Shown here one piece after another: positions 9,237 through 62,187 of a stretch of DNA of 64,000 nt (positions within the stretch are counted from its first letter, which is position 1; the number at the start of each line of letters is the position of its first letter). The translations under genes were made by a program, and so were the position numbers. Below the pieces are notes generated by a model. That model was not told the origin of the DNA. It did not search any database and saw only the letters and a list, made by a program, of their open reading frames with translations. This DNA comes from an uncultured Verrucomicrobiae bacterium (GTDB lineage Bacteria; Verrucomicrobiota; Verrucomicrobiia; Limisphaerales; Palsa-1400): assembly GCA_963702845.1 (NCBI GenBank), contig OY969763.1, positions 5,963,560-6,027,559 on the forward strand, given 5' to 3'.

Positions 9237-9285
9237 GCGCCGCAAAAGATGTTTCTAAAGTCGGAATTTTGTGCATCATTCTGGA

Positions 9286-11415: not shown

Positions 11416-11424
11416 TCCGCTGAA

Positions 11425-12354: not shown

Positions 12355-12501
12355 ATATCTGAGGCCGCAATTTACGGCTCCCGATTTACCAATGACCAGT
12401 CTTTTCTGCCAACGGATGCCGCGATCGGGAAAATTCGGAGTGGGCGAGTCAATCCAACAGCCAATTGCAAATGGGCCGTCTTTTGCTACTGTGCTCGCCT
12501 C

Positions 12502-14031: not shown

Positions 14032-14230
14032 TGGGTAGGGGGTAGGGCGAAGCTCCGGCTGAGCCTTTCAGCAGTGCAGCCTTCACATCTTGACAAGTAG
14101 TGCCTTTATGTCACGCTCCATCGCCTGCCGGGCTCGGCTCGTCGGTGTTCCGAAGCCTTTGGTTTCGCTCCGCGTTCTTTGACATAAATGTAACTACAGT
14201 AGCAGGTTCCGTTTACGAATTTGCCGTGGA

Positions 14231-14280
14231 AAGTAGCTACAAGTTGCGACTTGTAGTTGATTGTAGCAACTAGTAGCAAC
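14231..14280. repeat. 10-bp-period degenerate GTAG array containing a hairpin
   Basis: aagtagctac aagttgcgac ttgtagttga ttgtagcaac tagtagcaac; CTACAAGT-tgcg-ACTTGTAG inverted repeat at 14237-14256. Confidence 0.55.
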
Positions 14281-14327
14281 ATCCCCGCAAGAAAAGCGCC
14301 TTGCCTTGGTGCAGCTGTGGTAAGTTC

Positions 14328-17300
14328 TTAACCTTGAGCGGTTTTCGGTGCAAAACGCCCCCATCGCAACGCCAACGTTGGTAGCACGAGCAGGTTCAAC
14401 ACCGTCGAGGTCAGTAGCCCGCCAAGAATCACAATCGACATCGGTCCTTCGATTTCGCGTCCGGCCTCTCCTGTCCCGATGGCCAGTGGCAAAAGACCTA
14501 ACGCCGTTACCAGAGCAGTCATCAAAATCGGCACAAGCCGCTCCGTGGCTCCACGCAACGCTGCTTCAGGCCCCCACGGAATGCCTTCCTGGGTGACGAG
14601 ATGTTCGAAGTGCGAAATCATCATGATCGAGTTGCGCATCGTAATGCCGAAGAGCGTCACAAGTCCGACCATCGAGCCGAGTGAAAGATCACCCTTGCCT
14701 GTGTCGCTCAGCACGCCAGTAATAAAGGCCGCGAGGATGCCGCCAACCAACGCAAATGGAACGTTCGCCAAAACCAGCAGCAGGTTGCGCCAATTGCCGA
14801 AAATAATCGCGAGCAGAAGAACGATTGCGACACCCGCAATAAGCGAGTGAATGAGTAACTCACGTTGGGCCGCCGCCTGTTGTTGGGCTGCGCCGGAGTA
14901 GACGATATACGCAACCTTGGGTAATTGAACCTGGGCCGCAACCTTTTGCTTCGCTTCGGCCACAAACGTCGAAACATCACGGCCGCGCACGTTGCACGTT
15001 ACCGTCTGCCGTCGCCGTGCGCCCTCGTGCAAAATATTGTAACGGCCTGACGTCGTGTAAATTGCTGCCAGCTCACGCAAAGGCATGCGCAAACCGGAAT
15101 CATTCTGCACCATAAACGATTCGATGCTGTGCCTGTTTTGCCGATCCACGGAATCGAGAATCACTGCCACATCCGTGACGCGGTTCCCTTGATAAACCTG
15201 TCCGACGATGTTTCCCTGAAACGCGAGTTCGATTGCGTCCAGCACTTCAAGGGGGCGATAGCCGAATCGGGTTAACCGCTCTGGTTTCAAATCGATGGCA
15301 ATGCGTGGAGCGCCCGGCGGTGATTGCACCTGGACATCAGTCGAGCCGTTTACGCCCTGCAGCAACGCGGCAATTTCCCGCGCTTTCTGATCGGCAACAT
15401 CGAGGTCCTCGCAAAAAATGTTGAGCACCACGCCGGCCGTTTCGCCGCTGACGCTTTCACCAATGCGATCGCCGAGGAAGGTCATGACGCTGGACTGCGC
15501 GCCGGGAAATTTTTCAACAATCTCACGTATCTCCTTTTCAGCGACCTCTTCGTCTTCACCGCTGACACCCCGTTTCAGCTCGACGTGAAATTCGCAGCGT
15601 TGCGGCCCCCAGGTATCCTCGCCCATCTCAGCGCGGCCAACCTGTTGCTCGACTGATTGAATTTTGGAGTTGGCGAGAAGCTCTTTGGAAACCTCCGCGC
15701 CGACCCGCAGCATTTCCGGAAGCGACGTGCCCGGCACCATTGAAAACTGAATGACGAAATGTCCTTCGCGAAATTCCGGAAGAAACGCGCCACCGAAAAA
15801 GGGCAGGGTGGCACATGCTCCGAGCACAAGAAGAATTGCCAGAGTAATGATCAGTTTCGGCCAGCGCGCGGCGGCGCTGAGCAGCGTGCGTTGTCGGGTT
15901 TTGAGCCAACCGATGTATCGCGGTTCCGCGTGCGGTTTGATCCGCGAAAAAACCAGGTAACACAACGCCGGCGTCACGGTCAGTGCGACGGCCAGCGAGG
16001 CCAGCGTCGCGAGGATGAACGCCACCGCGAGCGGCGCGAAGAAACGTCCTTGCAGGCCGCTCATCGTCAGCACCGGCAAAAATACGAGCGCCACGATAAA
16101 CGTCGCGTAAACAATAGCGGAACGGACTTCAATCGATGCCTCCAGGACGACCGCGAAAACTGAACGCGGTTGCGGCAAGGTGATGTTGTGGCGCAATCGT
16201 CGAAGAATGTTTTCGACGTCAATAATCGCGTCGTCGACCACAACCCCGATCGCGACCGCAAAGCCGCCCAGCGTCATCGTGTTAATGGTCGCGCCAAAAT
16301 GATCGAGGATGATGACAGCCGTGAGCAGTGACAATGGAATCGCCATGAACGAAATCAGGGCGCTGCGAAAATCGAGCAGAAACAAAAACAAAATCACGGC
16401 AACGAGCCCGCCGCCGAGCAGCAGCGAGAACTGCACGTTGCGCAACCCCGTTTCAATGAAATTGGCGGGCCGATGGAGTCGTGGCACATACTGAATGTCT
16501 TCCTTTTCAAAGAGCGGCTTCATCTCATCGAGGGCGGCCTCTAGACCCTGCGTCACTTCCAAGGTGTTCGCGCCATACTGGCCGGAGACGGTGATCAATA
16601 CTCCGGGTTGCCCCATGATGAGAGAATCGCCAAACTTTGGCTCGAGTCCATCGACCACGTTCGCGACATCTTTGAGCCGGACTGTCTTGCCATCGGAATG
16701 TGCGACGGCGATTTCACCAAGAGCGGCTGCGTTGAGGCTTTGTCCTTCTGTTTGCAATACAATGCGCTGATTGGCGTTCTCGATGAACCCGGCGCCGCGC
16801 ACGCCGGTTGCATTACGCGCGGCGTTAAGAACGTCTTGAACTGAAATGTTGAACGCGATGAGCCGGTCTGGACGAATCTGGATTTGCAGTTGGGTTGAGT
16901 CACCGCCAAACACGGAGACCTTCGCAACACCAGGAACCGCGAGGAGACGAGGACGCACCGTCCATTCGCCGAACGTGTGCAAATCGACTGGCGAGATATT
17001 CGTCGAGATCAGCCCGAACTTGAGGATGTCCATCGTTGAGGATGTGAGCGGCTCCATCTTCGGCGACTTCACGCCGGGGGGAAGTTCGCCTGCGAGGGTC
17101 GTCAGTTTTTCCGCAAGCATTTGGCGCGCGCGGAAAATATCAGTGCCTTCTTTGAAGACCGCGGTGACAACCGACAATCCCTGGATTGATTCCGATCGGA
17201 TGTTTTCAAGATCACTCACTCCGCTGAGGGCGCTTTCGACAGGTCGCGTGACAATCGCTTCAACCTGTTCAGGCGCGAGCCCCGGCGATTCGGTTTGGAC

Positions 17301-36944: not shown

Positions 36945-37552
36945 ACAGTTGTGAGCTCCGGTTTGTTTGCAGTTCCCGCTTTTGCCGGCGGGATTTCAGA
37001 TGGAAAGCGCGCAGCGGGCTTTGAATCCGCACGAACCATAGACCGCTTCTTTTCCGGCGTGTCAGACATCGCAATCACAACCGCTCCAATCAAAGCGGCA
37101 GTAAGCAACAAGCCCATCGCTTCCAATGGCAGCAGATAACGAGTCATGAGCTCGTTGCCGATCAACTGAACCGGAGCCGAAGCGTCCGTCGGCGCAGTCT
37201 TGAAGGAAATTGAGCTGCTGAAGATCGGCAACAAAATCGCCGCCAACGCGCCGATCGTGATTGCGATACCCGTGATCCAAGAACGTGAAAAGATGGCAAC
37301 GTTCGGTTCGACTTCGCTCCCGCGCGTCAGCAATACCGTGAAGATGCTGAGAATTGAAATGGCGCCGACGTAGACGAGGAATTGGGCGAACCCGATGAAT
37401 TCCGCATCCAATCCCAGGAACGCCACTGCCAGACCCGCAAACGCCAACGCCGCGGCCAACGCGCAATGCACCGGATTGCGCAGGCGCATTGCTGCGACCG
37501 CGGCGCTGAGCGTAAAAACTGCGGTCAGGCAAAATGTAATTTTATTCGGCAT
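36941..37552 (-). CDS. nuoJ: NADH-quinone oxidoreductase subunit J
   Basis: QFLVYVGAI and YLLPLE motifs. Confidence 0.9.
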   Translation of the reverse strand: MPNKITFCLTAVFTLSAAVAAMRLRNPVHCALAAALAFAGLAVAFLGLDAEFIGFAQFLVYVGAISILSIFTVLLTRGSEVEPNVAIFSRSWITGIAITIGALAAILLPIFSSSISFKTAPTDASAPVQLIGNELMTRYLLPLEAMGLLLTAALIGAVVIAMSDTPEKKRSMVRADSKPAARFPSEIPPAKAGTANKPELTTV

Positions 37553-38756
37553 ACCGATAGGTCCGCGGCGCGCGTTTCAAACTCAACACGCGTCCCAAAA
37601 TTTCATAAGCAGTAAAAAATAATCCGATGCAGGCCAGCCATCGCGGTGCGACAGTTTCGAAATATTCCAATGGACGGGAGAGGACCGGGGTGGGCCAACT
37701 TACGGTCGCGAAATGCCAGATGCCAGCCACGACGATGTTTACCAACGTAAGCGGCACAACGAATTTCCACGCGAAATTGAGCAGTTGGTCGAAGCGCAAA
37801 CGAGGAACGGTGCCGCGTGCCCAAATGAATACTGCGATCAGCACGCCAAACTTGGCGAAGAACCACAGCCAGGATGGCAACACGCTCAAGAACGCGAGCG
37901 GCGCATTCCAACCGCCGAGGAACAGCGTGACTGCTAGTCCGGTCACGGCGAACAATCCGAGATATTCGCCGAGGAAGAAGAGGGCGTATTTGAAACCGGA
38001 GTATTCCGTCAGGAAGCCGGCGATAATTTCCGATTCGCCTTCGGGCAAGTCGAACGGCGCACGATTCGATTCCGCGGTGGCTGCAATCATGAACAACAAG
38101 AAACCGGCGGCGCCCCACGGCGTGAACACGTTCCACTGACCGACACCAAACGCGAAACCGGACTGCGCGTTAACGATCTCGTTCAAGTTCAAAGTCCCGC
38201 TGAGCATCAGCACCGGGATGGTCGAGAGCACCAGCGGCACTTCGTAACTGATCATCTGTGCAACCCCGCGCATCGCACCGATGAGCGAGTATTTATTGTG
38301 GCTCGACCAACCGGCCATGAACACGGCGAGTTCAGAGGCCGAGCCAACGGCGAAGAAGAACAGGATGCCCGCGTCGAGATCGATCGCGCTCATGTTCCGG
38401 CCAAACGGCAGGACTGCAAAGGCGAGCCAGATGGGAACCGTTAACACGATGGGAGCGAGGTAGTGCAGCACTTTGTCGGCGGCGTAAGGAACGATGTCCT
38501 CTTTGGTCAGCATCTTAACGGCATCGGCCATTGGCTGAAGAAATCCACACGGGCCAACGCGATTCGGGCCGTAACGGTTTTGTATTCGGCCGAGTCCTTT
38601 ACGTTCCAGAATCGTGGTGAGCGCAAAGGCTGTCCCGAACACTGCGATGATTGCCGCGATGCTCAGCACCACCGAGCTAACCGGTTGCAGAAAGGCTGGA
38701 ACAAACGTCAGCAACCATTGCTTCAGCGTGACAAAAATCTGGTCAAGCATTGTCAT
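37542..38756 (-). CDS. nuoH: NADH-quinone oxidoreductase subunit H
   Basis: ERK..GRIQNRYGPNRVG, AQMISYE, NRAPFDLPEGESE. Confidence 0.95.
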   Translation of the reverse strand: MTMLDQIFVTLKQWLLTFVPAFLQPVSSVVLSIAAIIAVFGTAFALTTILERKGLGRIQNRYGPNRVGPCGFLQPMADAVKMLTKEDIVPYAADKVLHYLAPIVLTVPIWLAFAVLPFGRNMSAIDLDAGILFFFAVGSASELAVFMAGWSSHNKYSLIGAMRGVAQMISYEVPLVLSTIPVLMLSGTLNLNEIVNAQSGFAFGVGQWNVFTPWGAAGFLLFMIAATAESNRAPFDLPEGESEIIAGFLTEYSGFKYALFFLGEYLGLFAVTGLAVTLFLGGWNAPLAFLSVLPSWLWFFAKFGVLIAVFIWARGTVPRLRFDQLLNFAWKFVVPLTLVNIVVAGIWHFATVSWPTPVLSRPLEYFETVAPRWLACIGLFFTAYEILGRVLSLKRAPRTYRYAE

Positions 38757-38950
38757 AACAGGGAAGCGAACTGATCACGCGAATTGAGGTGGTAATGGCA
38801 AAACGCGGTTTTCATTCAACTTCTTTCAACATTCGAGCAGCAATCAATGTGCAGTAAGAATCTCCTGAAATATCGAGAGAGACTCAGCGTAAATTGGCGA
38901 AACATTAGCCAAATTTGTCTATAGGGCGGGCCTTTGATTTGAGCGCCGAA

Positions 38951-38990
38951 TGGAACTAAAAGGAACCAAAGGGAACCAAAAGGAACCGAA
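38951..38990. repeat. Four GGAAC-containing decamers at exact 10-bp period
   Basis: tggaactaaa aggaaccaaa gggaaccaaa aggaaccgaa, 25 bp past the terL stop. Confidence 0.7.
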
Positions 38991-39015
38991 ATTAAGTTTT
39001 TTCGAATCGAATGCA

Positions 39016-40563
39016 TTATAAGCCCCTGAGTTTTGCGACGCGAATGACGTTCGGTTTGGTGGCGACCATGTAACGCAGGGCGTCAGCGGCATCGTCGCCT
39101 CCGGTTCCTTCCTCGTTGGTGTTTGTTTTTAATATATCGCCGGAACGATCGGGATCGTATTGGAGATAGGGCAACGTTTCGAGAAGGTGGGTGCAGCGTT
39201 TGTGAATGAACAGGCTGGGCATGATCCCGGCAGCAGGGTCGCCCAAGCGTTGTTGGATGGCGGACCATCCACTGACGCGGTCCATGTTGGCGCGGGTGAG
39301 TCGAATGCCCAAATCGCGATATTGCGACGCGACGGAGTTGCCGTTGCTTTCGGTGCCGAACATATCTGTGCCAGCGGGAAATCCAATCACCTTGCGTTTC
39401 GTCCATTGATTCCACGCGTGTTGCTGTTCATGCGAGTAGTTGGGGAAGCGGGAGAGGATGGCTTCTTTGGCATGATCTTCGGTCGAATAGACGGTGTGGC
39501 GAGCGAACATTTGTTTGATAGCCTGGGCGTGACGTTGAGGAACCCATAAACGTTCGGAATGTTCGTCGACGATGTAGAGGTTTCCCACGTGATCGTAGCA
39601 ACCCAACAGAACCACAGTGTAATGAGTGTAGCCGTAATCCATTGACGCCACCCATTCGACGGCGTGGAATTCTTTAAAACGGCGCAAGCGAGCGAGGTCG
39701 TCGAGGAAATTACGATCATCCGGGAGCGGACCGCGCGGCGCGACGGTCCCCACCTCGTCGTCGCCGATGATGTGGATGTCGGGCCGGAATGTCCGGAAAT
39801 ATTGTCCGGCTGGAATATTCCAATTGCCGTCGCACCAGGCGTCGCGCTTCCAACCGGTCAATGAGGCGAGTTCGGCTTTGTTTTCATCGTTGACGAAGGC
39901 GTTGTCCTCCATGCGGGCGGGGATGAATCGCGTCGTGGACTCGGTCCTCGATTCGTATGGGACGATAAATTTATCATAATACCATTGATGGCCGAGACCG
40001 CCGGGATTGGTGGCGGTATAGATGCGCGGACGCCAATCTTTGGATGTCCGGCAGCAGGTGGCGATGTCGGCGTATTTGACGGCAGACAGTTGAGTCGCTT
40101 CGTCGATGCCAATCACGTCATATTCGAGACCGAGATACTTGCCGATGTCTTTTTCGTGCTGGTAATGGCCGAGGACAATGCGGGAGCCGTTGGCGAATGT
40201 GAGGATACCGCGAGACGCGTTGAAGTCGTGGGGCAGAGAACAGAACAGGCGCTCGGTGAAATCCTCGAAGTTTTCGAGATTTGATTTGCCGACTTTTCGC
40301 AGCAGCAGGCATTTGAGGCCGGGAAAGCGCTGACAATCGTCGGCCCCGATCTGGCTGAGGAGCCAATGCGATTTGCCACCGGCGCGCGCGCCTCCATAAC
40401 CGATGGCGGTAGGACCGTCGGCTTTATCGCAGAGGCGCGCGGCGGCGCTGGCGGCGAGTTGCCTGGCTTGAAGGATAACTCCAGCGTTGATGAAGTTTTG
40501 GATCTGGTCAGCGGGGGATCCGGCTGATTGACAGAGGCCGATGAATTGGTCGGGAGAGATCAT
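39016..40563 (-). CDS. terL: Phage-type terminase large subunit
   Basis: Walker A GGARAGGKS, Walker B IGIDEATQL, coupling motif ATNPGG, RNase H-like acidic motifs SMDYGY and DDAADALRY; ORF intact. Confidence 0.88.
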   Translation of the reverse strand: MISPDQFIGLCQSAGSPADQIQNFINAGVILQARQLAASAAARLCDKADGPTAIGYGGARAGGKSHWLLSQIGADDCQRFPGLKCLLLRKVGKSNLENFEDFTERLFCSLPHDFNASRGILTFANGSRIVLGHYQHEKDIGKYLGLEYDVIGIDEATQLSAVKYADIATCCRTSKDWRPRIYTATNPGGLGHQWYYDKFIVPYESRTESTTRFIPARMEDNAFVNDENKAELASLTGWKRDAWCDGNWNIPAGQYFRTFRPDIHIIGDDEVGTVAPRGPLPDDRNFLDDLARLRRFKEFHAVEWVASMDYGYTHYTVVLLGCYDHVGNLYIVDEHSERLWVPQRHAQAIKQMFARHTVYSTEDHAKEAILSRFPNYSHEQQHAWNQWTKRKVIGFPAGTDMFGTESNGNSVASQYRDLGIRLTRANMDRVSGWSAIQQRLGDPAAGIMPSLFIHKRCTHLLETLPYLQYDPDRSGDILKTNTNEEGTGGDDAADALRYMVATKPNVIRVAKLRGL

Positions 40564-40595
40564 AAATGAAGTGATGAGTGACGGGTGATGAGTCG

Positions 40596-41198
40596 TCAGT
40601 TACTGGTGTTGGTATTCGTGTTGCTTTGAGCAACGGTAGAATTTGGGAAGGCGCGTTTTAGGGCGTTGGTGAGTTTGATTTGGATGGGTGACAGTGCTGG
40701 TTCCGCATTTTCGGGCAGATCGCCACCGGTGATGGCGAGACGACTAATGTTTGAGGAAATGTTCAAGGCGCGGGCGACCTGGGAAATAGTCATTTTTTGC
40801 AGTTGTTCCTCACCGCACGTTTCCAGGAAGCAATGGACGGCGCAGAGAAGTTTTTGGGCGGCGGTCCATTCCTGATGGCGGAGTTCGGCGAGGCGAGCGG
40901 ACCATTGCGCGGCCTGTTCGCGCCGGGACGCGGCTTCGGATTCGGCCTGCTGCTGCAACACCCCGGCATTGAACGATTGAATACGATCGCTCCAATCAAA
41001 TTTACTGGACCATTTTTTTATTGTGCCGATGGCTTCATCGAGTTTATCGGCGACGGCTTGCAACGAACGGCCATGACCGAGTTGGAAAAAGGTCATGAAG
41101 GCGCTGTAAGCGCGAGGGCTTTCGCCCTGAGCGCGCGGAAACGTCGGCAACGTTGCAGTCAAAGGACCTTCGTTCGCGGTGATTGCTTCGTTTGTCAT
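40596..41198 (-). CDS. Probable terminase small subunit (HTH + coiled coil)
   Basis: GESPRAYSAF...RSLQAVADKL...IKKWSSKFDWSDR HTH-like segment directly upstream of terL. Confidence 0.65.
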   Translation of the reverse strand: MTNEAITANEGPLTATLPTFPRAQGESPRAYSAFMTFFQLGHGRSLQAVADKLDEAIGTIKKWSSKFDWSDRIQSFNAGVLQQQAESEAASRREQAAQWSARLAELRHQEWTAAQKLLCAVHCFLETCGEEQLQKMTISQVARALNISSNISRLAITGGDLPENAEPALSPIQIKLTNALKRAFPNSTVAQSNTNTNTSN

Positions 41199-41590
41199 AC
41201 TGGATATGCGCGTTGAGAGTTGGCAGGAATTACACGACTTGGTTTTTTGTTTTTGAGCTGTTTACAAAGCTTGTCCAACAGCTCATCAAAAATCGTCAGC
41301 AGCCGCCTGCGCGTTTTAGGATCAGGACAGGTTTTGGCGTAGATATGAGTGTTTATGTACCAGCATCGTTGGCGAGGGTGGAACACGAGCGCTTGAACCG
41401 GCCATAGGTACAATTTATCCCAGAGCGGTTCGGGAACATCCATTTCGCGTGAACAAATCCAGAGCGTCCGATCAGGGCCCACAGCGACCTGGTAGACATA
41501 TGTGGAACCGTCACTGTGCGGTTGAAACGAGTGAAAGAAGTGGAGGTCTTCGAACTTAATTTTCGTTTTATTAGTCGATAACAGTTTCAT
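41195..41590 (-). CDS. Hypothetical protein
   Basis: Short ORF whose stop overlaps the small-terminase start; no recognised motif. Confidence 0.4.
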   Translation of the reverse strand: MKLLSTNKTKIKFEDLHFFHSFQPHSDGSTYVYQVAVGPDRTLWICSREMDVPEPLWDKLYLWPVQALVFHPRQRCWYINTHIYAKTCPDPKTRRRLLTIFDELLDKLCKQLKNKKPSRVIPANSQRAYPV

Positions 41591-41809
41591 AGTTATCGTG
41601 AGACTAACAACGTCACTTGGACAAAGGCTGTCCAAGTGGAATTTTTATTGAAAATAATTTGCGCGGCGCAGGAACAGGCGTAACCCATTAATCAGGAATT
41701 GGTTGCCGTAGTCGGGAGCTGCATTGGCCTGCTAATTCTTGCTAATAGCCGCTGAATTTAGTGCTGGTTTTGATGGCAGAGAAAGAATGGGTGATGTCTC
41801 GCGACGGAC

Positions 41810-41886
41810 GCGAAGAGCGCGAACATTATGGGATAGGGATAAACGATAGGGATACTCGATCCGAAACGGACGATTTCAAAAAACGG
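41810..41886. repeat. RAYT-remnant direct repeat, copy 1
   Basis: gcgaagagcgcgaacattatgggata...gggatactcgatccg...gacgatttcaaaaaacgg shared with 43832-43926; minus strand reads RPFRIEYP. Confidence 0.7.
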
Positions 41887-41943
41887 ATTTGTGTCAATAG
41901 TTGGGACTGACACTTGCACTCTGCTTCCAAAGGCGCATCTAAT

Positions 41944-43482
<1,539 letters not shown>

Positions 43483-43512
43483 TTTTTTGAAGGAGTTGAA
43501 CAACACTAGTTA

Positions 43513-43792
43513 AAACTGATAGGAAATTGCTTTTTGACGCTGGCGCGGTTAAGGGAGAATTGCTTTTCACAATGTCTCATTTTTTGAGGATGCTGCGCCC
43601 GTAGAAACGTTCAGTCAAGTGACCTTACGCATTCCGGTGCATCGCTTACGGTCCTGACGACTGCGGTGGTCAATTTGGAGCCAAAAACGGCTCGGTCGAG
43701 GCAGACCCCAACCGTTTCCAAAAAACCGATAGGAAATCGCTTTTGGACGCTGGCGCGGTTAATTGCAAAAAGGATTTCGCGCGAAGGTTTCG
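43513..43792 (-). repeat. 280-bp leader repeat, copy 1 (promoter-like, with a ~40-bp internal direct repeat)
   Basis: Aligns with 51900-52180; minus-strand TTGACT-17 bp-CAGCAT at 43618-43590. Confidence 0.85.
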
Positions 43793-43831
43793 AACCGCCG
43801 ACTGGGAATCGGGGCTCGCTCCGCTCGGGGA

Positions 43832-43926
43832 GCGAAGAGCGCGAACATTATGGGATAAGGGATAGACCGCGCCGGGATACTCGATCCGTAACGGACGAGG
43901 GTGACGAGACGATTTCAAAAAAACGG
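43832..43926 (-). pseudogene. REP-associated tyrosine transposase (RAYT) 5' remnant; direct repeat copy 2
   Basis: Minus strand encodes PRPLRIEYPGAVY, typical of RAYT/Y1 transposase N-termini, then breaks off. Confidence 0.7.
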
Positions 43927-44123
43927 TTGCTTACCAATTTCCAAAAACGTCGATTTGATACGCGAGCACGTCATCAACATCCGGTGACCCCCATCCGCTG
44001 ACGCATCAAATCCGCTGTCATCTCCTGACCCCCATCACCTGTCACTTGGCCACTTAGAACCGACCCCTTTATGGGCCGGCTGGAAACCAGCGTTCCGAAT
44101 CGTCAAGCCCAAGCGTATCAATA

Positions 44124-44146
44124 GCTGCCGGCTTTAGACCGGCAGC
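44124..44146 (-). terminator. Hairpin downstream of the rhodanese gene
   Basis: GCTGCCGG-ctttaga-CCGGCAGC; weak T-tract. Confidence 0.45.
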
Positions 44147-44161
44147 CATGAGCAAAGGCAA

Positions 44162-44551
44162 TTAATTAGCTGCCTCGGTCTTTTCGCCGGCGTCTTTCCA
44201 GCCTGCGATGCCGACGGTCAGGTGCTTAACGTTTGTATAGCCGAGCTTTTTGGCCGCGACTGCAGCTTGGTGGTAAGCCTGGCAACGGGAATTTCCGCAG
44301 TAAGCGATGATCTCTGCGTTTTTGTCCTTGGGCAACACGGACGCCAGAATGTCCTTATTTGCAATGTAGTCGACAGCGCCAGGAATATGGCCTTTTTGCC
44401 ATGATTCGGTGCCATTAACGTCGAGCAAGGTTGCGTTCTTGGAAGCAACTGCAGCTTTAACGTCGGCGACCGAAACATCGGGGAATTCGGCCGCATACAC
44501 ACCGGCCACGATCGAGAATAGTGCAAAGATGGATAAGAGTCGTTTAATCAT
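44162..44551 (-). CDS. Secreted rhodanese-like protein
   Basis: Signal peptide; GHIPGA, YCG..RC, GIAGW motifs. Confidence 0.88.
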   Translation of the reverse strand: MIKRLLSIFALFSIVAGVYAAEFPDVSVADVKAAVASKNATLLDVNGTESWQKGHIPGAVDYIANKDILASVLPKDKNAEIIAYCGNSRCQAYHQAAVAAKKLGYTNVKHLTVGIAGWKDAGEKTEAAN

Positions 44552-44718
44552 GGCATAACATTAATTTGATATACAGACTTCGCAAGTTTTCTTGGGCTCC
44601 CTTCTCCGCCGTCTCCTACATTACTTGGTAGCAGCCGATGTAAGGGGGCAAGGGAAAAAAAGGCCAAACGGACACCCGGATTGCAGTCAAGCGTGTGAAC
44701 GCAGCCACAGCATTACAT

Positions 44719-45958
44719 TCAAATACGGGTGCCCAGATTTAGCTCTGATGCGTTAAGTGAAAAACTCGAAGATAAACCGCGCGCTCGTAAATGCGGCGTA
44801 TTGCTGCCACATGTCTCCTTACGTTTATCCGCGAAGTCTGATACTCATTTTAGCAACAAGGATTCTCGGACGAGGTGCAGTAGCCAAATGAGCAGCGTGA
44901 AAAACGCCAAAAGCCTCCATCTCTAAACCAACAACTTTCCGAGATTTGCTAAGAATGTCATCGACGAGCGTCGGGTCTTGCACAACGGCTGCTCCCGAAG
45001 CCAGCAAGCCGACAATGAGTTTCGGAATTCTGGTAAAGAGGCGTTGGCCAAGCACGACGAATTACATCCATCCGAGGCTGGTCGCGCTCCCACTGCTGAA
45101 GTAATGGGTGAAGCTCAGGATCGATTCGCAACTGGGTATGACTTGGGGTAAATACTCTCCCGTTGTCCGTTTCTGCGATCTTTCCCGAGCCATAGTCGTA
45201 TGCGGCTTCTGCGACGAGAATGTCTCCGTACTGTTGTTCTTTGTTGGTCCAGCCGCAATGCCAGTCATAACCAAAAACCGAGGGCGCCAACGTTCGATAA
45301 CCTTGCATGCAGTAATTGCGGCCGCTGTCATCCCATTGTAGGTGCAGCAGAGGCGACGACCGAGATTTTAGTGCCGTAACACGTTTTCCAAGCCGATGAA
45401 TAGTAATGTAATGCGTCGGCTTGATTGTATTCGCAGTTTCTTATCCCAGGCGTTTTCAGTAATTCGCGGAGTTCGACTTGCGGCGAAGACGTAACGATCG
45501 CGACGTCGGTCTTATACGCTCTCGGGCGGATTTCTGCATCATGCAGTCTCGCTGCTACGAATCGAGCTTTACTGGTGAGCGATTCGCGCGGAATCACTTG
45601 TTTCGTCATAGACAACTACATGGACCAGTTTTTTTTCAGCATCGGTTCGAAGTGTCGTCGCCGCCTCTGAAAATGCCGTTAGACAGATAATGTGCGATGG
45701 TGGATGACAGGCGGATCCATCCAGAAGCTCCGAAAGCACTTGCTTGCCTGCTGTCCCGCTCGGTGCTTCTCCGTCCCGCACTGGCATGACCAAATCCAAA
45801 ATTAAAAGATCAAAAACTTCCTCTTCGAGTTGTTTCACAGCACCTCGGAAGCTTTTACTGCGTCGAATGTCGACGGGCCTAGTGGCTAATGCGGCACGCA
45901 GTACCGACTCTACGGCAGCCGCTTTAGCGTCAGTATCATCTGCTATCAGAACTTTCAT
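44719..45958 (-). CDS. dtcC: Detocs DtcC-like receiver + PNP-fold nucleosidase effector (multiple frameshifts)
   Basis: REC (LIADD, LILDLVMP, CLTA) then, across frames, MGMTAAA, MTGIAAG, GDILVA, YDYGSGK, LASGAAVV, GLEMEAFG, VSDFAD, WQQYAA; stop at 44753 or 44719. Confidence 0.78.
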
Positions 45959-46412
45959 GTTGCTGTTTGATTGATTTCAGCATTGCGGTCAACTTTCCTT
46001 GCCACGTTGAGTCCACGTTACTGTAGTAAATCCCACCATAGAATAGGGTTGGATATGTTTGTTTCAGTTGATTCAGTAAAACAGTGAGATTTACCGAGTT
46101 TGGCCCCTCGCCGAAGTGATCGAACTGCGTCACGACGACGACTTTGGAATTGATGTCTTCCAGGTTCATTTCCGCAAGAATCTCACGACCTCCGAAAATT
46201 CTTGTGCGCCCCTCTAGTCGCCCATCCGTTCGTTCGGAAGTAGGAAGCGTCATATCCAACAACAGGAGATCAGGGCGTGTCTCGCGGATCGCACCCAGCC
46301 CTGTTTGAAACGAGCGTGCTATTTCTACTTCACACGCAATCCCTAGGTCTTTAACTAACGACTGAAGTGCTTGAATCTTGTAGTCGGAGTCATCGATGAT
46401 TAGAACTTTCAT
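45936..46412 (-). CDS. dtcB: Detocs DtcB-like standalone receiver domain
   Basis: LIIDD, LLLDMTLP, VVVVTQ; no output domain; overlaps both neighbours. Confidence 0.8.
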   Translation of the reverse strand: MKVLIIDDSDYKIQALQSLVKDLGIACEVEIARSFQTGLGAIRETRPDLLLLDMTLPTSERTDGRLEGRTRIFGGREILAEMNLEDINSKVVVVTQFDHFGEGPNSVNLTVLLNQLKQTYPTLFYGGIYYSNVDSTWQGKLTAMLKSIKQQHESSDSR

Positions 46413-49400
46413 GCCGCTAAAGCTCCCACATCACACGTAACTGTCACAAGCACGTTACAATCCTTGCTTGTAGCCGTAACTACCGGGACGATTTGTTTAA
46501 ATTCATATAATAGCGCTGCGATGATTTTGGCAAACCCACTGCCTCCTTCTTTGACTACCTTAGCGGGTTCAAGTTTTGCTTTAAGCTCTAACAGGATTTG
46601 CATAATCGTTTGTGCCGCAGCTGAGGCGCAGGCTGGCGAGGTCATTGGGCTATGCACGCAAAGCTCTATGTCGCCCTTTTCACCAGAAATGGTTAATTTC
46701 GACTGAAAAGATTCTCGGCTTACGTCCGAATGATGTAGAGCATTTTCGACCAAAAAGAATAGGATGTGGACCAAGGTCGTAAAGTGGCGCCCTCTGACTC
46801 GATATGGCGACGTTACTTCCACAACATGCCTGCCACGGAACTCGGGATTCAGTTGCTCGACCATTCCGACGGCGGTTCTTGCGGCCAATTCGAAGCTTGC
46901 ATCGCCCATAAGTGTAGCGTCTGCATCTTGAAACCACGCTCTCATTTCATCGCAGAGTCGCTCTGTATCGTGACGGCACGCGGCGAGAGTGTTTCTAAGG
47001 GGTGCGAGATTCATTCCGCCCAATGTCTCCGGTAACATCCCAAGAACGTCATCGACGGCAATACGAAGTCGTACCCGTAATTCAACCTCTATCAAACATC
47101 TTACATTTCGCAGACTGCTGCGGGTCCTTTCTAACAAGACATCGAAAACACCATCTAAAAATGTATCTACCGATCCGGTATCGGGCATTCGTGCAAGGAC
47201 CCGCTGCAATTGGTCGTCGGTAAATTGATAGTCAAATACGCCGCCGAGGTTTCTCGTTTCGGTTTTTGAGTGGAGCCAGATGTTTTTGACCTCCTCCGCA
47301 ATCGTGTTGATTTGTTCAGTGAGAACATACAAAAGATTCATTACGTACGAGAGTTCGTCAGTCTTTTCCTGCAGTGCGAGACGCGTGCGCCAATACTCTT
47401 CTATTTTTCGTTGTTCTGGAGAATCCTTCCGAACAGCTAACTTCCGCTCGACGAACGGCTTTCTGATGTGCTGAATCACGATTCCGTGGCGAATTCGGCC
47501 ACTAAGGCTCGCTTTATTCCGAAATGCGGACTTGAGACAAAAGCATCTCGAATTTCCCGAAATGCGAGTGAAAAAGCTATAACTGCGGATTCGTGACGTG
47601 CCGCGAAAGGCTCAGGTTGAACGCGAATTGAGGCGTTACGGGCAAAAGGAGATAGGCGATTTTGTAGGTCGTCTTTAACTTGGGTTGCGACCAGGTCGCG
47701 CTGAGCTACGAACCGAAAGTATGCGTCGGTGAATCGCCGTTGTTCGGCTTCGCGAAGCGCTGCAACGTTTACCATGACGCGAGTCCTCCTTCTATTTTTT
47801 CCAGAGCTTCACGTAGCTGGGCATGTTGGGTTACGCGCAAAATCTCGGTTTCAGCAACGCGATCGAAATTCGGTGCGTGTTTTGTGATCCAATTTAATAA
47901 TACCAGTTGCTCTGACTCGACTTTTTCGACCGAACTCAAATCGTTGAGAGAATCGATCACTTCAGGCGTAAACACTCGCAACAGCAATACGGCAAGAGCA
48001 CGCTGGTCAAGGCCTTCGATATTGCAAAGTTCCGATGGTATTTTGACGTTCAACTTTCGTAGGTACCTTTTCAAAGCGAGAGAAACCTCGTGCGGATCAT
48101 CACAAGCGAGGTACGCGACAATCGGGAACTCTATCTGTAGGCTAGCTTGTTCTTTATTGTCGAGACACGTGTCAAAAATGCGCTTCATTGACACTCGACG
48201 AATCGATTGCGGCGATTCAGGAACGTTTGGACGAGTATACGCTGCATTTGGACGACATCACCCTTAATACGGTAAATGTCGATCAATGCTCTTCTAGCTT
48301 CTTCCACTGCATACGGTGAAAGCGGGCTATCGGGATTCTCCTCTTGAAGCCTGAGATAGTGATTAAGATGCCGTAGAGCCTCAGTATATAAATTTCGTCG
48401 CGCCGCAGCAAGTCCTGCGAAAAAGTGGTGACGAAAAGCAGGAATCGTCTCGCAATTCTGGAGTTTTTCAACCTGAATCCCTTCCGATATCTGAAAGAAA
48501 AACTGCATCGACGTGCTCGATGAAAAACTTTGAAGGCACTGAGCGAGATACTTGTTGTTTACCTCTGGCGGATAACCGTATTCGAAATTTCGGGGGCCAT
48601 GTAACCCGAACGTGAACGCAGCCCTTCGGGGCCATTTCTGATCTGGCAACGGCGAGGAATGAAGCGCATGCAGGGACCGAAGTCCATCACTCATTGTAAA
48701 CACCCGAAATCGGCTGCCGAACCGTCGCAAATAACCAAGCGAATCTTCTGACTGTTGGTTTTTAGAAAAAACATTTAGCAAATGCTGACGGAGCAACACT
48801 TCAGGAGAATTTCCCACGAAGATCTCTGAGTCACCCGCATACATTGCCGCCTTTGTGGCTAGCTCTTGATCTCCTATAAAGAACGGATGGCTGTGAGCGA
48901 GATTCCTTGCTGCCTTTAAGCTACCAACGTAGTCACTTGCTAGGTACTTGTCCCAAGCTTCAACTAACCCCTGTGTCTCGGTTGAGGGTGTTATACCGCT
49001 GTTTTCCGACACGCAGTCGCCAATGTATTTAAGGATCGGATCCTGTATCGGAGTGGTAAGCCTAATCACAGCTCGGCCCAGTTTTACCGCCTCATTATGC
49101 TGAGAACCGTAGGCTGTTGCTGTCAATCGAAGGAAGAACTCGTATCGGTCGATTAATGGACACGCTTCAGAATGGGATAACATATCAGCGACTGACCATG
49201 ATTCCGCACAGTCCTCTAACACAAATAGGTCCAAAAACACTCGCAGCGAGTCGGTATTGCATGAAACATAACTTCGAATCGTTTGTCTGAAGTGCTCCTC
49301 GGGGAGTGCTGTGTCACTTGCAATCCCAAAAATCCGTGTAAACACTGGAAGTGAAGTTCCGAATTGTTGTTCGTCTTGATCAAAGCTATCCACCAATTCT

Positions 49401-49855
49401 GAGCGACTTTTTGCACCCCGCGCCTCTTGAACAAGTAGGATACGCCAAAATATTCCCCACAACGTTGGGCCAAAGCATTTATGATGTTCCTTCAAGATTT
49501 TGTCAGCGCTGTCCCAATTTCCTCGTAACATCGCGGTTACAAATTCGGTACGCTTTAACGCGTGGGCACTAAGCTTTGACGCGTGAACGTGAGCCAATGC
49601 AGAGAACCAATTCACAGCTTTTTGAGAGTTAGTGATTCGTGGCATCCCTCCCGGAACCCAAAGTTCGTTGAATCGTTGCGGAAAGCAGCGGCCGGTAAAA
49701 AACTGCTGAACCCTCGGATTCTCGAAGCTGAGCGTTGAAAGAACCTCAATTTGTTCCCGAATGTCGGCCTTCGCCCTCAGATAGCGTGCCGCGCGAGCCG
49801 CATCAACGTCGCTCGTTCGCAGCGCTAACAATATTTGCGTTGGTGAATAAATCAT
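46409..49855 (-). CDS. dtcA: Detocs DtcA-like sensor: helical/TPR-like N-terminus plus histidine-kinase-like C-terminus (four frameshifted fragments)
   Basis: Fragments 48185-49855, 47769-48194, 47476-47775, 46409-47479; putative H-box LSGRIRHG in frame just before 47479, N-box LVENALHHS, G-box KEGGSGFAKI. Confidence 0.75.
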
Positions 49856-50050
49856 AACCCGGACCCTTCACACGTGAGCCTCACGTTCATTTGACAGGCG
49901 GTCTGGAGGCGCGTCAGTTTAGGGGAATAGGGGCGGTGTCGCAACTGTTGTTTGGTCGGCGACTTCGCACGTCGACAGTCCCCAACTTTCCTTTTCCCCG
50001 CGCGGCCGTCGCGAGACAACAAATCAGTGCAATCCGTGGTTGGTCCGAAA

Positions 50051-50093
50051 CCGACGTTCATACGAGGCGGACGTTCATGCGAGGCCGACGTTC
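50051..50093. repeat. 17-bp tandem repeat, 2.5 copies
   Basis: ccgacgttcatacgagg cggacgttcatgcgagg ccgacgttc. Confidence 0.7.
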
Positions 50094-50098
50094 GGCCT

Positions 50099-50169
50099 TG
50101 TAACGGGTCCGCAGAGCGTCTGTAACGCCTTTTGTAACGGGTCAAACCCCCTGGAAGGATGGGGGTGGG
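50099..50169. repeat. TGTAAC iteron-like element, copy B
   Basis: Three TGTAAC; similar to 32036-32141 including the G-rich tail. Confidence 0.6.
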
Positions 50170-50645
50170 ATCCGCGTTCCCTTTTTCGATATTCGATATT
50201 CGATAGCCAAGTGGTAACAGCATCGCTCGATGCATTGATCAAGGAATCGTGCCAGCCCTGACGCGGGGAAGATCGTCCGAGGTATCCGCCGCCTGGTAGA
50301 AGGCCCCTGCTCGATATTGACGGGCGTCGTGTCGGTCTGCGCGTTACCCAGGATCCATGAACTCGCGAGCGCGGGCGACCCGTTGGGCGGCAGGTAGTCC
50401 CTGTTATCGCCAACGTACATGTGATAACAGAATTGAAGTTGCCTCATGTTGCCGAGGCACTGGATGGTTCTGGCTTTGGCTTTGGCCCGGGCCAACGCTG
50501 GTAATAACAGGGAGGCCAGGATCGCGATGATCGCAATGACTACCAGCAACTCGATGAGCGTGAAGCCTGGGAACGGGCCTGGCGTACAAATCGCGTGTGT
50601 GCTCCCGCTGACGCACCTTTTCTTTGCTGTGCGAAGAAGGTTCAT
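50142..50645 (-). pseudogene. Truncated prepilin-type N-terminal cleavage/methylation protein
   Basis: [29 protein letters not shown]; family-like sequence appears to end at ~50305 (VNIEQG) and runs into repeats. Confidence 0.7.
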
Positions 50646-50881
50646 TCGTATTGCTGACGTCTGCTTTAAAGACGATGAATCAAGCGACAGAAGGAGGCGA
50701 TTGAAATCTGGCGATCTCCGAATTGGTTTTTCTGGTGGGACTAAGCTTGGCGGATTGAAAATGGTGCAGTGTCAATAGTTAGGACTGATAAGCATTAAGG
50801 GCGCTGGCTGAGGAAGGTCTCCTCGCGGTAGAACGTTGTTTGTCCGACGAAAGACAAAACAACAAACCGAAGGGAGACCCT

Positions 50882-51046
50882 ATGAAGCGTAGTTTAATGG
50901 CTGCCATCGACCTGCACAGTAATAATTTATTTTGCGGCATCGTCGATGCGCAGGGCCGACATGTGTTCGATAAAAAACTTCCCGGGATGGGCGCGCGGCT
51001 GGAAAAGCAAAAGAACCTTAAAAAGCAGGCCGGCGCTAGATCCTGA
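50882..51046 (+). pseudogene. IS110-family transposase 5' fragment
   Basis: MKRSLMAAIDLHSNNLFCGIVDAQG resembles the DEDD RuvC start of IS110 transposases; truncated after ~35 aa. Confidence 0.7.
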
Positions 51047-51197
51047 TGGTGACTGACCGGATCGCTTCAACCGAGGCGATTACGAATCAGACGAATGAAA
51101 AGATGGGTTCGAATGCAGCTTGCAAAAAATCGGCAGCTATAGAGAAACTCAATTTAAAAATTGAGAACAGCAACATTTTGCCTTATTGACACGCGCC

Positions 51198-51899
51198 CTA
51201 ATGGGTGACACCTGGTCGTCCGCCGCCTCGCAATTGAGCGATGTATTGCAATTCGTGCAGCGCCTTTTCGTCGCGCGGGTCCAGTTGGAGGCATCTCTGG
51301 TACAGGCTCTCGGCGTCGTCCAATTTACCGAGTTCGACCATTACGAATGCCTCGCCTCTCCACGCGCGTCGCCGGGCGACATTACCGTTGCCATCATTTT
51401 CGGGTGTACGGAGCGCTACCTTGGCGAAACACTCAAGAGCTTTATCCCAGACACGGGTCCGTTGATAAGCGTAACCAAGCTCGCATAAGAATTCGGCGTT
51501 CCCCGGCGAAAGGGCCGCCGCCATGTTCATATGTTCGATCGCCTGATCGATGTTTCCTTGTTCGACAGCGATGAAACCCTTGACAAAGTAGGCGTGCGCA
51601 TACCCGAATGAGACCACGATTGCCGTCACATTATCCATGGCGGCCTGGCCCAGACAGCAGATCGTGTCCAGCGCTCCTTCGGCACAGTAAACCCGCTCTT
51701 TTCTGGTTCCGTATAGTTTTTCGAACTCACGAATTACCGGATTGATGAAATCATCCAGAACTGCTTGAAATTTTCGCTCGCGCACGATCATCTGCCAGAC
51801 TTGCTGATTGTGCGCGCGATATCGGTCGAGATGGGGAGATTCCGATGGCGAGCCAGGTGCCGGATCGCTATTTCCACCGGGAGGCTGTGATAGATTCAT
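51198..51899 (-). CDS. Tetratricopeptide repeat protein
   Basis: TPR-like units (AYFVKGFIAVEQGNIDQA, FLCELGYAY, LGKLDDAESLYQRCLQLDP). Confidence 0.8.
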   Translation of the reverse strand: MNLSQPPGGNSDPAPGSPSESPHLDRYRAHNQQVWQMIVRERKFQAVLDDFINPVIREFEKLYGTRKERVYCAEGALDTICCLGQAAMDNVTAIVVSFGYAHAYFVKGFIAVEQGNIDQAIEHMNMAAALSPGNAEFLCELGYAYQRTRVWDKALECFAKVALRTPENDGNGNVARRRAWRGEAFVMVELGKLDDAESLYQRCLQLDPRDEKALHELQYIAQLRGGGRPGVTH

Positions 51900-52180
51900 A
51901 AACTGATAGGAAATTGCTTTTGGACGCTGGCGCGGTTAAAGGAGAATTGCTTTTCACAACAACTCATTTTTGGTGATGCTGTGTCTGGGGAGGCATTGAG
52001 TTAAGGTGACTATGCGCATCCCGGCGCATCGCTTACGGTTCTGACGAATGCGGCGGTCAATAAGGAGTCAAAAAACGCCTCGATTGAGGCAGACCCCAAC
52101 CGTTTCCAAAAAACCGATAGGAAATCGCTTTTTGACGCTGACGCGGTTAATTGCAAAAAGGATTTCGCGCGAAGGTTTCG
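51900..52180 (-). repeat. 280-bp leader repeat, copy 2
   Basis: Aligns with 43513-43792; abuts the TPR gene ATG; TTAACT-17 bp-CAGCAT at 52004-51976. Confidence 0.85.
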
Positions 52181-52244
52181 TTGTTCATGTGTGCTGGTCC
52201 CTAGTTCACACGTTCAGACACCACTTTGACGCCAAGGAAACAGA

Positions 52245-52390
52245 CCTCCTCTCCCGTGCCCTCTCCTCCATCTGAATGGAGGAGAGGGAGGAGTTTTGGT
52301 TTGGGTGCATTAACCGGGGGGTGGCGTCGAATCGGCTCCCCAGCCGACTCGCCTTACCCCCGGCTATTTTCATTTCGCCCCTGCAGGGCT
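52245..52390. repeat. Cluster of intergenic palindromes
   Basis: CCCTCTCCTCCAT-ctga-ATGGAGGAGAGGG and CCGGGGG...CCCCCGG stems downstream of nuoI. Confidence 0.6.
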
Positions 52391-52461
52391 CTTGGGTCAG
52401 GACAACCGTCCCCGGTTGTTGAGAGTTAGTTGACAAGATATCGGAGTCTAAATGCAACGGG

Positions 52462-60381: not shown

Positions 60382-62187
60382 GTGTCGCTTGAACATACAG
60401 AACGCGAAGATACTGGCGGCCGCCGCGACCGTATGCGGCGAGCGCTCCATTTTGCCTTCCCATACCGGAAATCCGTTTTTCTCATTTTCCTGATCACGTT
60501 CATTGTTGCCTCTGTCGGCGCCGCTGAGCCCCTGATCCTCAAATACATTTTTGACGGGCTCGGTGGTGGTCACGGAGTCCGGACCCTGATGATCGGGGTC
60601 GCGTGGTTGCTTGGGATAGGACTGCTGCGCGAGTCCGGAACAGGCGTCTCCAACTGGCTGACGTGGCACACGCGGCTCGGTCTCCATCACGCCTTGCTGG
60701 AGGCGACGGTTGGACGCCTGCACCGAATGCCGTTGAGTTTTCATAGCCGGGAAGGTGTGGGAGCGATCATGACGAAACTCGATCGCAGCATCCAAGGGTT
60801 CATCGGCGCAATCACTCAGATCCTTTTCACCGTGGTTCCCGCGATAATCTATTTAGGCTTTTCGATTTTTATCATGTTGAAGCTCGATTGGCGGCTCGGT
60901 TTGATGGTCCTCGCGTTCGCTCCCGTGCCGGCGATCATTGCCGCGTTTGCCGCTCCGGAACAAATCGAACGTGAGCGCGACATTCTTGATTCCTGGAGCA
61001 AAATCTATTCGCGCTTCAACGAAGTCCTCTCCGGCATTGTAACCGTGCGTAGTTTTTCGATGGAAGAAATCGAGAAACAACGGTTCCTAAAGAGGATTGG
61101 TGAAGCCAATCACATTGTCGTTAAAGGCGTGATCACTGACACTGCGTTCACTGCTGCAACCAATGTTGTGATCGCGCTCGCCCGCATTGCGGCGATCGCC
61201 CTTGGTGGGTGGTATGTGATCCACGGCCAGGTTACCATTGGAACGCTCATTGCGTTTCTCGGATACATCGGCGGCCTGTTCGGCCCGGTGCAAGGTTTGA
61301 GCGGCGTGTATCAAACCGTTAGAAAAAGCCTCGGTTTCGATCGACGAAATTTTCCGCATCCTGGACGTTCAGGAGCATCTCGGCGATAGCATTCATGCTG
61401 TCGAACTCAAGAGCATTCGAGGCGACATATCGTTTGAAAACGTGAAGTTTAGCTATGAACAGACAAGCCGCCCGATTCTCAATGGTGTCACCCTCAACGT
61501 CAGGCAGGGTGAAACCGTCGCGCTGGTAGGGCCGAGTGGTGCCGGCAAAACAACTTTGCTCGCGCTTCTCATGCGCTTCTACGATCCGCAGGAAGGCCGT
61601 GTTATTCTGGATGGCCATGACATTCGTGATTTGAAACAAAAGTCACTGCGACGAAGCATCGGGGTGGTCTTGCAGGATCCTCTCTTATTCAACGATACCG
61701 TGCGCAACAACATTGCTTACGCAAAGCCGCAGGCGACGATCGCCCAAATCGAACACGCCGCCCACCTCGCCAACGCGCATTTGTTCGTTTCGCAGTCGCC
61801 TGATGGCTACGACACGATGGTAGGGGAACGCGGCAGCCGGCTTTCTGTTGGCGAACGCCAACGCATCACTATCGCGAGGGCACTGATCAGGACCCATCCA
61901 TCCTGCTGCTGGATGAAGCGACGTCGGCTCTCGACGAGGAATCCGAAGAGCTGGTGCAAGATGCGTTGGAACGGCTGATGAAAAATCGAACGACACTCGT
62001 CATCGCGCACCGGCTTTCGACGGTGATGCTCGCCAGTAAAATCGTGGTGTTGAAAGATGGCCAAATCAACGAAGTGGGCACGCACGACCAATTAATGCGA
62101 AGCCAGGGATATTACTCTTCGCTCGTGCACCGGCAGATCGCTGGTCTCATTCGTAACACTGGCGAAGAAGAATTGAGTGCCGCGTAA
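60382..62187 (+). CDS. ABC exporter, fused permease/ATPase (two frameshifts)
   Basis: TM domain; [31 protein letters not shown] across breaks at ~61325 and ~61890. Confidence 0.85.

Follow-up and report, generated by a model that had tools for sequence, protein, structure and literature searches.

Why would a bacterial chromosome keep an intact pair of phage DNA-packaging genes with no head genes beside them? The question is raised by a terminase module in an uncultured Verrucomicrobiae bacterium of the Palsa-1400 lineage (GenBank assembly GCA_963702845.1), whose genome is one contig of 6.03 Mb and is 90% complete. The window analyzed is the whole 64,000-nucleotide stretch at positions 5,963,560 to 6,027,559 of contig OY969763.1. 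The terminase copy in the window is called W, and any terminase copy without a linked portal gene is called lone. Our analysis indicates that the module is an intact phage terminase operon derived from head-only elements and selectively kept without replication or head genes. Its features are as follows (window positions).

41195-41590, minus strand: ORF131, an open reading frame (ORF) of 131 amino acids, overlapping terS by 4 nucleotides, unassigned to any family
40596-41198, minus strand: terS, 200 amino acids, matching phrog_6299 (terminase small subunit, E 2e-21)
39016-40563, minus strand: terL, 515 amino acids, unbroken, ATPase and RNase H-type nuclease motifs intact
38952-38991, no strand given: phased array of four 10-bp units starting at 38952, 38962, 38972 and 38982, 24 nucleotides past the terL stop
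37542-38756, no strand given: nuoH (PF00146), after the phased array

An earlier note on this DNA had described an unbroken terL with ATPase and nuclease motifs, a small-subunit candidate and an overlapping ORF, followed by a phased repeat and nuoH and not by a portal gene. This description was confirmed, for the module genes by the ORFs, Pfam, PHROG and the family alignment. The N-terminal ATPase of TerL matched Pfam Terminase_6N with 35.8 bits (cut-off 22), Terminase_3C fell below its cut-off (E 0.009), and PHROG large-subunit families 979 (E 1e-20) and 5653 (E 1e-11) together covered both domains. Walker A (GARAGGKS, residues 58-65), Walker B (IGIDE, residues 151-155) and ATNPGG agree with the family alignment columns, and the acidic residues D309, D400 and D490/D491/D494 are conserved in the family; we take these motifs and residues to have the roles usual in terminases. 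By these sequence features TerL is a large terminase of the Caudoviricetes type with both its ATPase and its nuclease domain, and the gene upstream of it, with a predicted N-terminal DNA-binding domain, is the small subunit. The helix-turn-helix (HTH)-like N-terminus of TerS is retained in the alignment, its HTH profile matches being weak and below cut-off. An AlphaFold model of TerL had a mean pLDDT of 42 and was set aside, and a PDB sequence search returned 0 matches for TerL and weak matches only for TerS. A 27-residue insertion between the TerL domains (window 39679-39759) is unique to W among 17 aligned sequences.

ORF131 matched no family at threshold in Pfam or PHROG and had no usable match in the ESM Atlas. 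Two homologues were found at 54-56% identity, and its phmmer matches are element genes in loci L079 (E 2e-9), L077 and L073; a two-sequence profile of the homologue in element B, introduced below, scored it at E 0.34 only. In sequence, ORF131 resembles a derivative of the gene that precedes the primase in the parent elements.

No head genes accompany the module. A tblastn search of the window with references from the genome's own elements (two portal, capsid, scaffold, adaptor, five primase/helicase and one WYL) gave no match, and genome-wide HK97 portal and capsid searches found nothing inside the window. No integrase was recognized by eye in the window ORF lists (28-64 kb) and flanks, where no profile search was made. 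Thus, the earlier statement that portal and capsid genes are missing near the module held, and a portal and capsid search of the genome gave a divided answer: none in the window and five head sets elsewhere. The term "orphan" was therefore abandoned, as the genome holds six further full terL paralogues, with 52-55% identity to W, and five cognate portal-scaffold-capsid sets. Five of the paralogues sit in integrated head-only elements at the following genome coordinates.

A: about 124-150 kb
B: 1.686-1.741 Mb
C: 2.23-2.25 Mb
E: 4.28-4.32 Mb
F: 4.82-4.84 Mb

In each of these, primase or helicase genes lie upstream, and a DUF4055/phrog_145 portal, scaffold, major head protein and head-tail adaptor lie 4-15 kb downstream of terL. 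Profiles confirmed the integrase, WYL, AAA_25 and head genes of element A. Long cargo occupies the space between terL and portal in all five, and element B begins beside tmRNA. The sixth paralogue, D, is lone and lies ahead of a host gene, and the same site is occupied in congener G002. In addition, two terS-only copies, S1 and S2, are 62-64% identical to the window TerS.

A second, unrelated (Mu-like) terminase family repeats the lone pattern in the same genome. Six Terminase_6C genes were found: one belongs to an HK97-type head module, one is accompanied by a portal only, and four had no head gene in the 5-14 kb read. The loci of this family comprise lone pairs, one pair with an HK97 portal, one broken or fused terL and one terS alone, mostly preceded by the promoter box described below, and they lie at these genome positions.

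2301953-2305649
2758-2761 kb
2183-2185 kb
2129-2131 kb
273.6-274.3 kb
2595-2597 kb
3497-3500 kb

The distance between terL and portal was then relevant to what "lone" means. Relatives were collected by alignment scans, which gave 80 of 165 genome matches, those scoring best, together with 35 viral matches; locus scans with single proteins had found none. Among these best 80 genome loci, the portal lay 1,150-6,933 bp from terL in 27 of 27 portal-bearing loci (median 4,415). Therefore the portal is not adjacent to terL in this family, contrary to the earlier expectation that it follows directly, and a 10-kb flank may miss it, as it would in elements B and E. At least 9 kb followed terL in 30 of the 80 loci. 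The tabulation of homologues proposed earlier came out on both sides, with head genes in 21 of these 30 and none in the other 9. Read by eye, terL in the lone loci is followed by host genes, and terS is preceded either by host genes or by an HTH gene of the XRE type. Most lone copies lie among housekeeping genes and outside defence islands, with no primase or cargo region beside them.

Is the module merely what an element left behind? In such an explanation, lone pairs would be repeated remnants of compact head modules (like locus L241, below) or of full elements, and the selection signal would be ancestral. Several observations fit it: the neighbours of the module in the window are broken, one portal-less copy (L125) fell inside the element clade of our first tree, the pieces known from close strains are short so that their wider context is not visible, and the genome holds many terL 3'-end stubs. 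Eleven stubs of 25-67 codons were located, some forming direct repeats around a reversed cargo gene, at genome positions 398925, 397917, 1543229, 1545113, 1717564, 2361476, 2817076, 3447242, 3667490, 4294595 and 5419647.

The selection results argue against it. The ratio of non-synonymous to synonymous divergence (dN/dS, NG86) was 0.11-0.29 in 15 of 15 lone terL pairs, compared with 0.03-0.13 in 13 element pairs. The cleanest pair is copy D with its orthologue L075, which occupy the same portal-less site in two congeners and have a dN/dS of 0.11 at a synonymous divergence (dS) of 0.51. For W itself, at least 40 differences from close strains were counted (4 more unlisted), of which 23 fall inside the module; the ratio of synonymous to non-synonymous differences was 4:0 in terL and 8:2 in terS (together 12:2), and 4:5 in ORF131. 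The catalytic motifs of TerL are kept in 14 of 14 lone copies, one of which is without its N-terminus. The marks of a neutral remnant, a dN/dS near 1 and broken frames, were not seen in the module, and the lone terL frames used were unbroken. Moreover, the lone copies share derived traits (loss of a TerS tail, arrays and an own promoter) and have no primase or cargo region left beside them. The earlier view that the module is a retained stand-alone unit and not debris was thus borne out, and the remnant explanation is judged unlikely, by a small margin the least favoured of those considered here.

The relationships of the lone copies were less simple than they first appeared. The first tree had 104 rows, with short or broken sequences (6), a duplicate (1) and distant viral sequences (11) left out, and placed 14 lone or short-contig copies in one branch (support 96). 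Three of 7 metagenome loci, including L241, were added for a second tree. With IQ-TREE and 37 rows, 17 replication-less sequences (15 of them without a linked portal) separated from 20 others (88/92). Two members of this branch, L241 and L100, carry portals. In L241, which nests beside the window copy, terL stands directly before a DUF4055 portal, scaffold and capsid. Its module reads as follows.

9163-17164 (L241), no strand given: compact terL-portal-scaffold-capsid-adaptor set with an unrelated two-part terS and host-like genes on either side

No primase or integrase was seen within 10 kb of L241, which is a candidate for a head of the gene transfer agent (GTA) type. Two proposals were dropped with this locus. 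First, the portal-less copies were no longer taken as one clade once L241 was added; because L241 nests beside W and monophyly of the 15 portal-less copies was rejected (approximately unbiased test, p 4e-5), the branch is defined as replication-less, and on these sequences portal absence arose or was reversed more than once. The portals of L241 and L100 inside this branch and the rejected monophyly also count in favour of the remnant explanation. Secondly, a conserved C-terminal tail of TerL is not a sign of portal binding, because the portal-linked TerL of L241 is without it. Close relatives were found at different loci (L128/L089 at dS 0.26; L138/L124 at dS 0.35), which fits mobility.

Two traits set the lone copies apart. 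First, an acidic-hydrophobic tail after the last TerS helix was present in 0 of 10 lone and 58 of 63 element copies, counted with a refined pattern; a stricter one had first given 36 of 64 element TerS. The W TerS retains the final helix and has lost the acidic tail in the alignment, and the TerS of D, S1, S2 and L242 are also without it. Secondly, 8 of 12 lone copies have a phased array within -1500 to +500 of terL, compared with 7 of 68 among the element copies, and the array sequence is conserved between copy D and L075. The window array is a candidate TerS-binding or packaging start site. Genome-wide there are 39 arrays; one lies no more than 3 kb from 10 of 29 promoter boxes, whereas random places, not matched for intergenic position, gave a mean of 1.0.

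The tail loss fits an explanation in which the module purely interferes: the damage-induced pair would poison the packaging of resident elements or related phages with no productive transfer. The tail-less TerS could join the TerS rings of the elements or occupy their pac sites, and TerL could be titrated or miscut concatemers. The terS-only copies (S1, S2 and a Mu-like one), the relaxed selection on TerL and the position beside a Detocs-like locus are consistent with this. So are several published observations: excess TerS inhibits packaging in T4, SPP1 and E217 (PMC9611059), Rpp works through a heterocomplex with phage TerS (PMC6739421), and a WYL activator governs both repair and defence genes in Moraxellaceae (PMC12392091). 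However, the catalytic residues of both TerL domains are all kept, arrays are kept beside the pair, most lone copies lie among housekeeping genes, and PADLOC 2.0 matched 0 families with TerS, TerL or ORF131. Pure interference is considered somewhat unlikely. It shares one step with the diversion that we prefer and discuss below, which is acting in trans on the packaging of the elements.

The promoter region, like the genomic paralogues, was absent from the earlier note. It contains two features.

41613-41639, minus strand: palindromic operator of 27 bp with 11-bp arms and a GAC-N7-GTC core, a predicted activator box of the WYL/DriD type
41601-41609, minus strand: extended -10-like element TG-n-TAGTCT, 10 nucleotides before the ATG, read from the sequence, with a predicted near-leaderless transcript

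The spacing from box to -10 is similar at most box sites. A sigma-70 scan found no -35/-10 pair in the promoter region, and a Verrucomicrobial LexA-type box had 11 scattered exact matches in the genome and none at the module. At up to 2 mismatches the box has 28 matches in the genome, compared with 1, 4 and 3 in three shuffles, and a matrix built from 24 boxes gave 29 sites of at least 26 bits, the next scoring 13.4. All four WYL genes have the box, the fourth at a degenerate site; the other three lie inside elements A, B and E, so induction of these elements together with the module is plausible. W, D, S1 and five of the Mu-like family's terS genes likewise stand behind the box, and recA starts 494 nucleotides after one. 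Other boxes precede what we take to be ligA and a gene for an ImuB-like protein. In congener G002 the box occurs at 15 sites, in loci picked for a matching box.

The geometry is that of a known type of regulon. The DriD consensus has the same GAC-N7-GTC arrangement (PMC10853764), and the sites bound by DriD overlie the -35 position, with constant spacing to the -10 (PMC13004042). The likeness to the WYL damage regulons of DriD and DdaA thus lies in this palindrome at the would-be -35 and in its presence at WYL genes and recA (PMC10853764, PMC13004042, PMC12392091). The difference is that many predicted members here are terminase modules and other phage-derived genes.

Several side observations were made on the boxes. 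Those at genome positions 5753351 and 5844312 drive a DUF3631 gene and a 369-residue gene of no family, both of which are also box-preceded in G002 (51% and 85% identical). Many boxes are followed by a low-complexity leader of 400-500 nucleotides, often with 10-bp phased arrays of differing sequence, and then by a host gene (recA and others). Examples are at genome positions 42050, 2839566, 2882215 and 4979323, and this arrangement could be a mobile promoter cassette.

The box shared by the module and recA would also fit a role without any capsid. TerS-TerL could be an inducible DNA-binding nuclease/ATPase acting on the chromosome, in end processing, programmed death or DNA release, much as DriD controls the endonuclease BapE (PMC13004042). 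In 3 of 11 carrier genomes, whose assemblies are of unstated completeness, no portal and no capsid match was found, as this role would allow. On the other hand, a DUF4055 portal lies elsewhere in 8 of the 11 carrier genomes compared with 7 of 60 relatives; Fisher tests overstate this association, since the 60 include two of the carriers and related genomes are not independent samples. Of 300 genomes of the order, 1 gave a W-type terS (E 1e-25; at most 10 candidates scored per genome), a sporadic spread unlike that of a core repair gene, and lone copies outside the genus lack the box. A capsid-independent damage effector is considered unlikely.

The reading that we prefer, at a probability of about 0.4, is a damage-induced, trans-acting diversion of resident heads to chromosomal DNA, starting at the array of the module. 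By analogy with DriD, a WYL protein would sense single-stranded DNA, bind the box and activate the operon. TerS would then bind the phased array, TerL would dock on the portals of the elements, and headful packaging from the chromosome would follow, as in lateral transduction. Packaging of the elements would drop as heads fill with chromosomal DNA, and tails would be supplied by an outside phage. The five cognate head sets in the same genome, the portal and array associations and the repetition of the lone pattern in the Mu-like family speak for such diversion. In addition, intact ATPase and nuclease motifs in all lone copies are more than a decoy would need, the place of L241 among the nearest TerL relatives indicates a TerL lineage still found coupled to DUF4055-portal heads, and the HTH-like N-terminus of TerS is kept, unlike in the candidate GTA TerS (PMC12946183).

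A number of points weigh against diversion. First, selection on lone copies is weaker than on element copies, and pairs that include W have a dS above 1.2, near saturation. Secondly, TerS C-termini bind TerL in lambda and P22 (PMC9611059), so with its tail lost the pair may not form a normal holoenzyme. Third, similar arrays occur near terminase-free boxes and away from any box; therefore arrays need not be packaging sites. The rejected monophyly of the portal-less copies, the failure of the TerL tail as a portal-binding sign, the missing box in lone copies outside this genus and the three carriers without a portal or capsid match belong here as well. None of the 23 viral-contig rows in the first tree fell within the lone-copy branch, no tape-measure gene was found genome-wide, and no integrase or att site was seen to explain arrival at new loci. 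Lastly, we infer every step (induction, binding, docking and packaging) from sequence.

The module was compared with three kinds of known system. The parent elements resemble phage-inducible chromosomal islands of the capsid-forming kind (cf-PICIs; 10.1101/2022.09.08.507074, PMC10085698) in having an integrase, regulator, primase/helicase, terS-terL, portal, scaffold, capsid and head-tail adaptor with no tape measure found, and linked capsid, portal and head-tail genes are present in all five. They differ in their DUF4055 portal, phrog_247 capsid and WYL regulator, and in the 4-15 kb of cargo that separates terL from the portal. The window module is unlike a cf-PICI in consisting of terS-terL and one small ORF only, without a linked capsid, portal or primase. 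Redirection by pac-type islands (PICIs and the Staphylococcus aureus pathogenicity islands, SaPIs; TerS-S, Ppi and Rpp) is similar in the predicted redirecting or blocking of packaging by a TerS homologue that lies outside the genome of the helper (PMC6739421). PICIs have a core integrase and primase and borrow the TerL of the helper, whereas the module carries its own TerL, with no integrase or primase recognized.

Gene transfer agents, the third kind (PMC12946183), are like the module in that packaging genes of phage origin stand apart from any prophage, are under selection and answer to a regulator of the host (here a predicted box). They are unlike it in that the module has no conserved locus, no linked head-tail cluster and a sporadic distribution in the order, its TerS keeps an HTH-like domain, and several unrelated copies occur per genome. 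Vertical inheritance at a conserved locus was not found for W, and copy D is conserved in one congener. The earlier suggestion of a dispersed GTA component is thus unlikely, as a congener has no module at this site and W-type terS is so rare in the order. On the features compared, the module belongs to none of the three kinds and yet likely works like PICI packaging redirection. The reported lateral cotransduction of SaPIs is grouped here with this redirection.

The remaining features of the window concern the site of the module.

38757-52461, no strand given: insertion of 13.7 kb that parts nuoI from nuoH, with the module at its downstream end
44825-49855, no strand given: Detocs-like genes (PADLOC PDC-M60A/B/C), of which B is intact, A is in three or four pieces and C is in four

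The stretch is regarded as an insertion because nuoI and nuoH abut in G002 (L214) and in family member G003 (L233); the module is absent from both nuo sites. The decayed neighbours described earlier are real, the PDC-M60 genes being in pieces. The proposed link to Detocs looks incidental, given this breakage and the fact that reading the other lone loci by eye turned up no neighbour of the Detocs-like kind. Pieces of ORF131, terS and terL with 95-100% identity occur in public runs of several other studies, and among the contigs listed from them none bridges terL and nuoH. Misassembly is an unlikely cause of the portal-less layout because the layout recurs in independent assemblies.

Direct repeats of 280 bp, 87% identical (window 43510-43790 and 51900-52170), bracket a TPR gene, the Detocs-like genes and a rhodanese gene, and parts of them recur elsewhere in the genome. 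The protein encoded at window 41944-43506 begins with a signal-peptide-like segment and contains collagen repeats as well as an S74 chaperone domain; a low-depth contig (X3) joins 41828 to 43858 without this gene. At 60382-61978 an ABC transporter gene is split in two frames.

No description of such stand-alone terminase modules was found in the literature searched, with most subscription papers and all supplements outside its scope, and supplementary satellite or GTA tables of the cited papers could list such loci. What this analysis adds is the window copy, the missing tail of lone TerS, the association of lone pairs with arrays and portals, and L241 as a counter-case. It is conceivable, though doubtful, that units consisting of a terminase alone form a separate class, either as minimal packaging parasites or as packaging switches enlisted by the host, without integrase, replication or capsid. 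Such units would join the WYL damage regulon, mark their start site with a phased array and make the heads of resident satellites carry chromosomal DNA, and two unrelated families would have arrived at this state many times in one genome. The results name a candidate operator, a candidate start site and a lineage-specific TerS change as points for testing, and they offer a testable reason for lone terminases persisting under selection. If the preferred reading is true, such modules would be invisible to prophage, satellite and GTA finders, which would label them debris, and bacteria with head-only satellites would own a damage-inducible, two-gene route of chromosomal gene transfer or satellite control.

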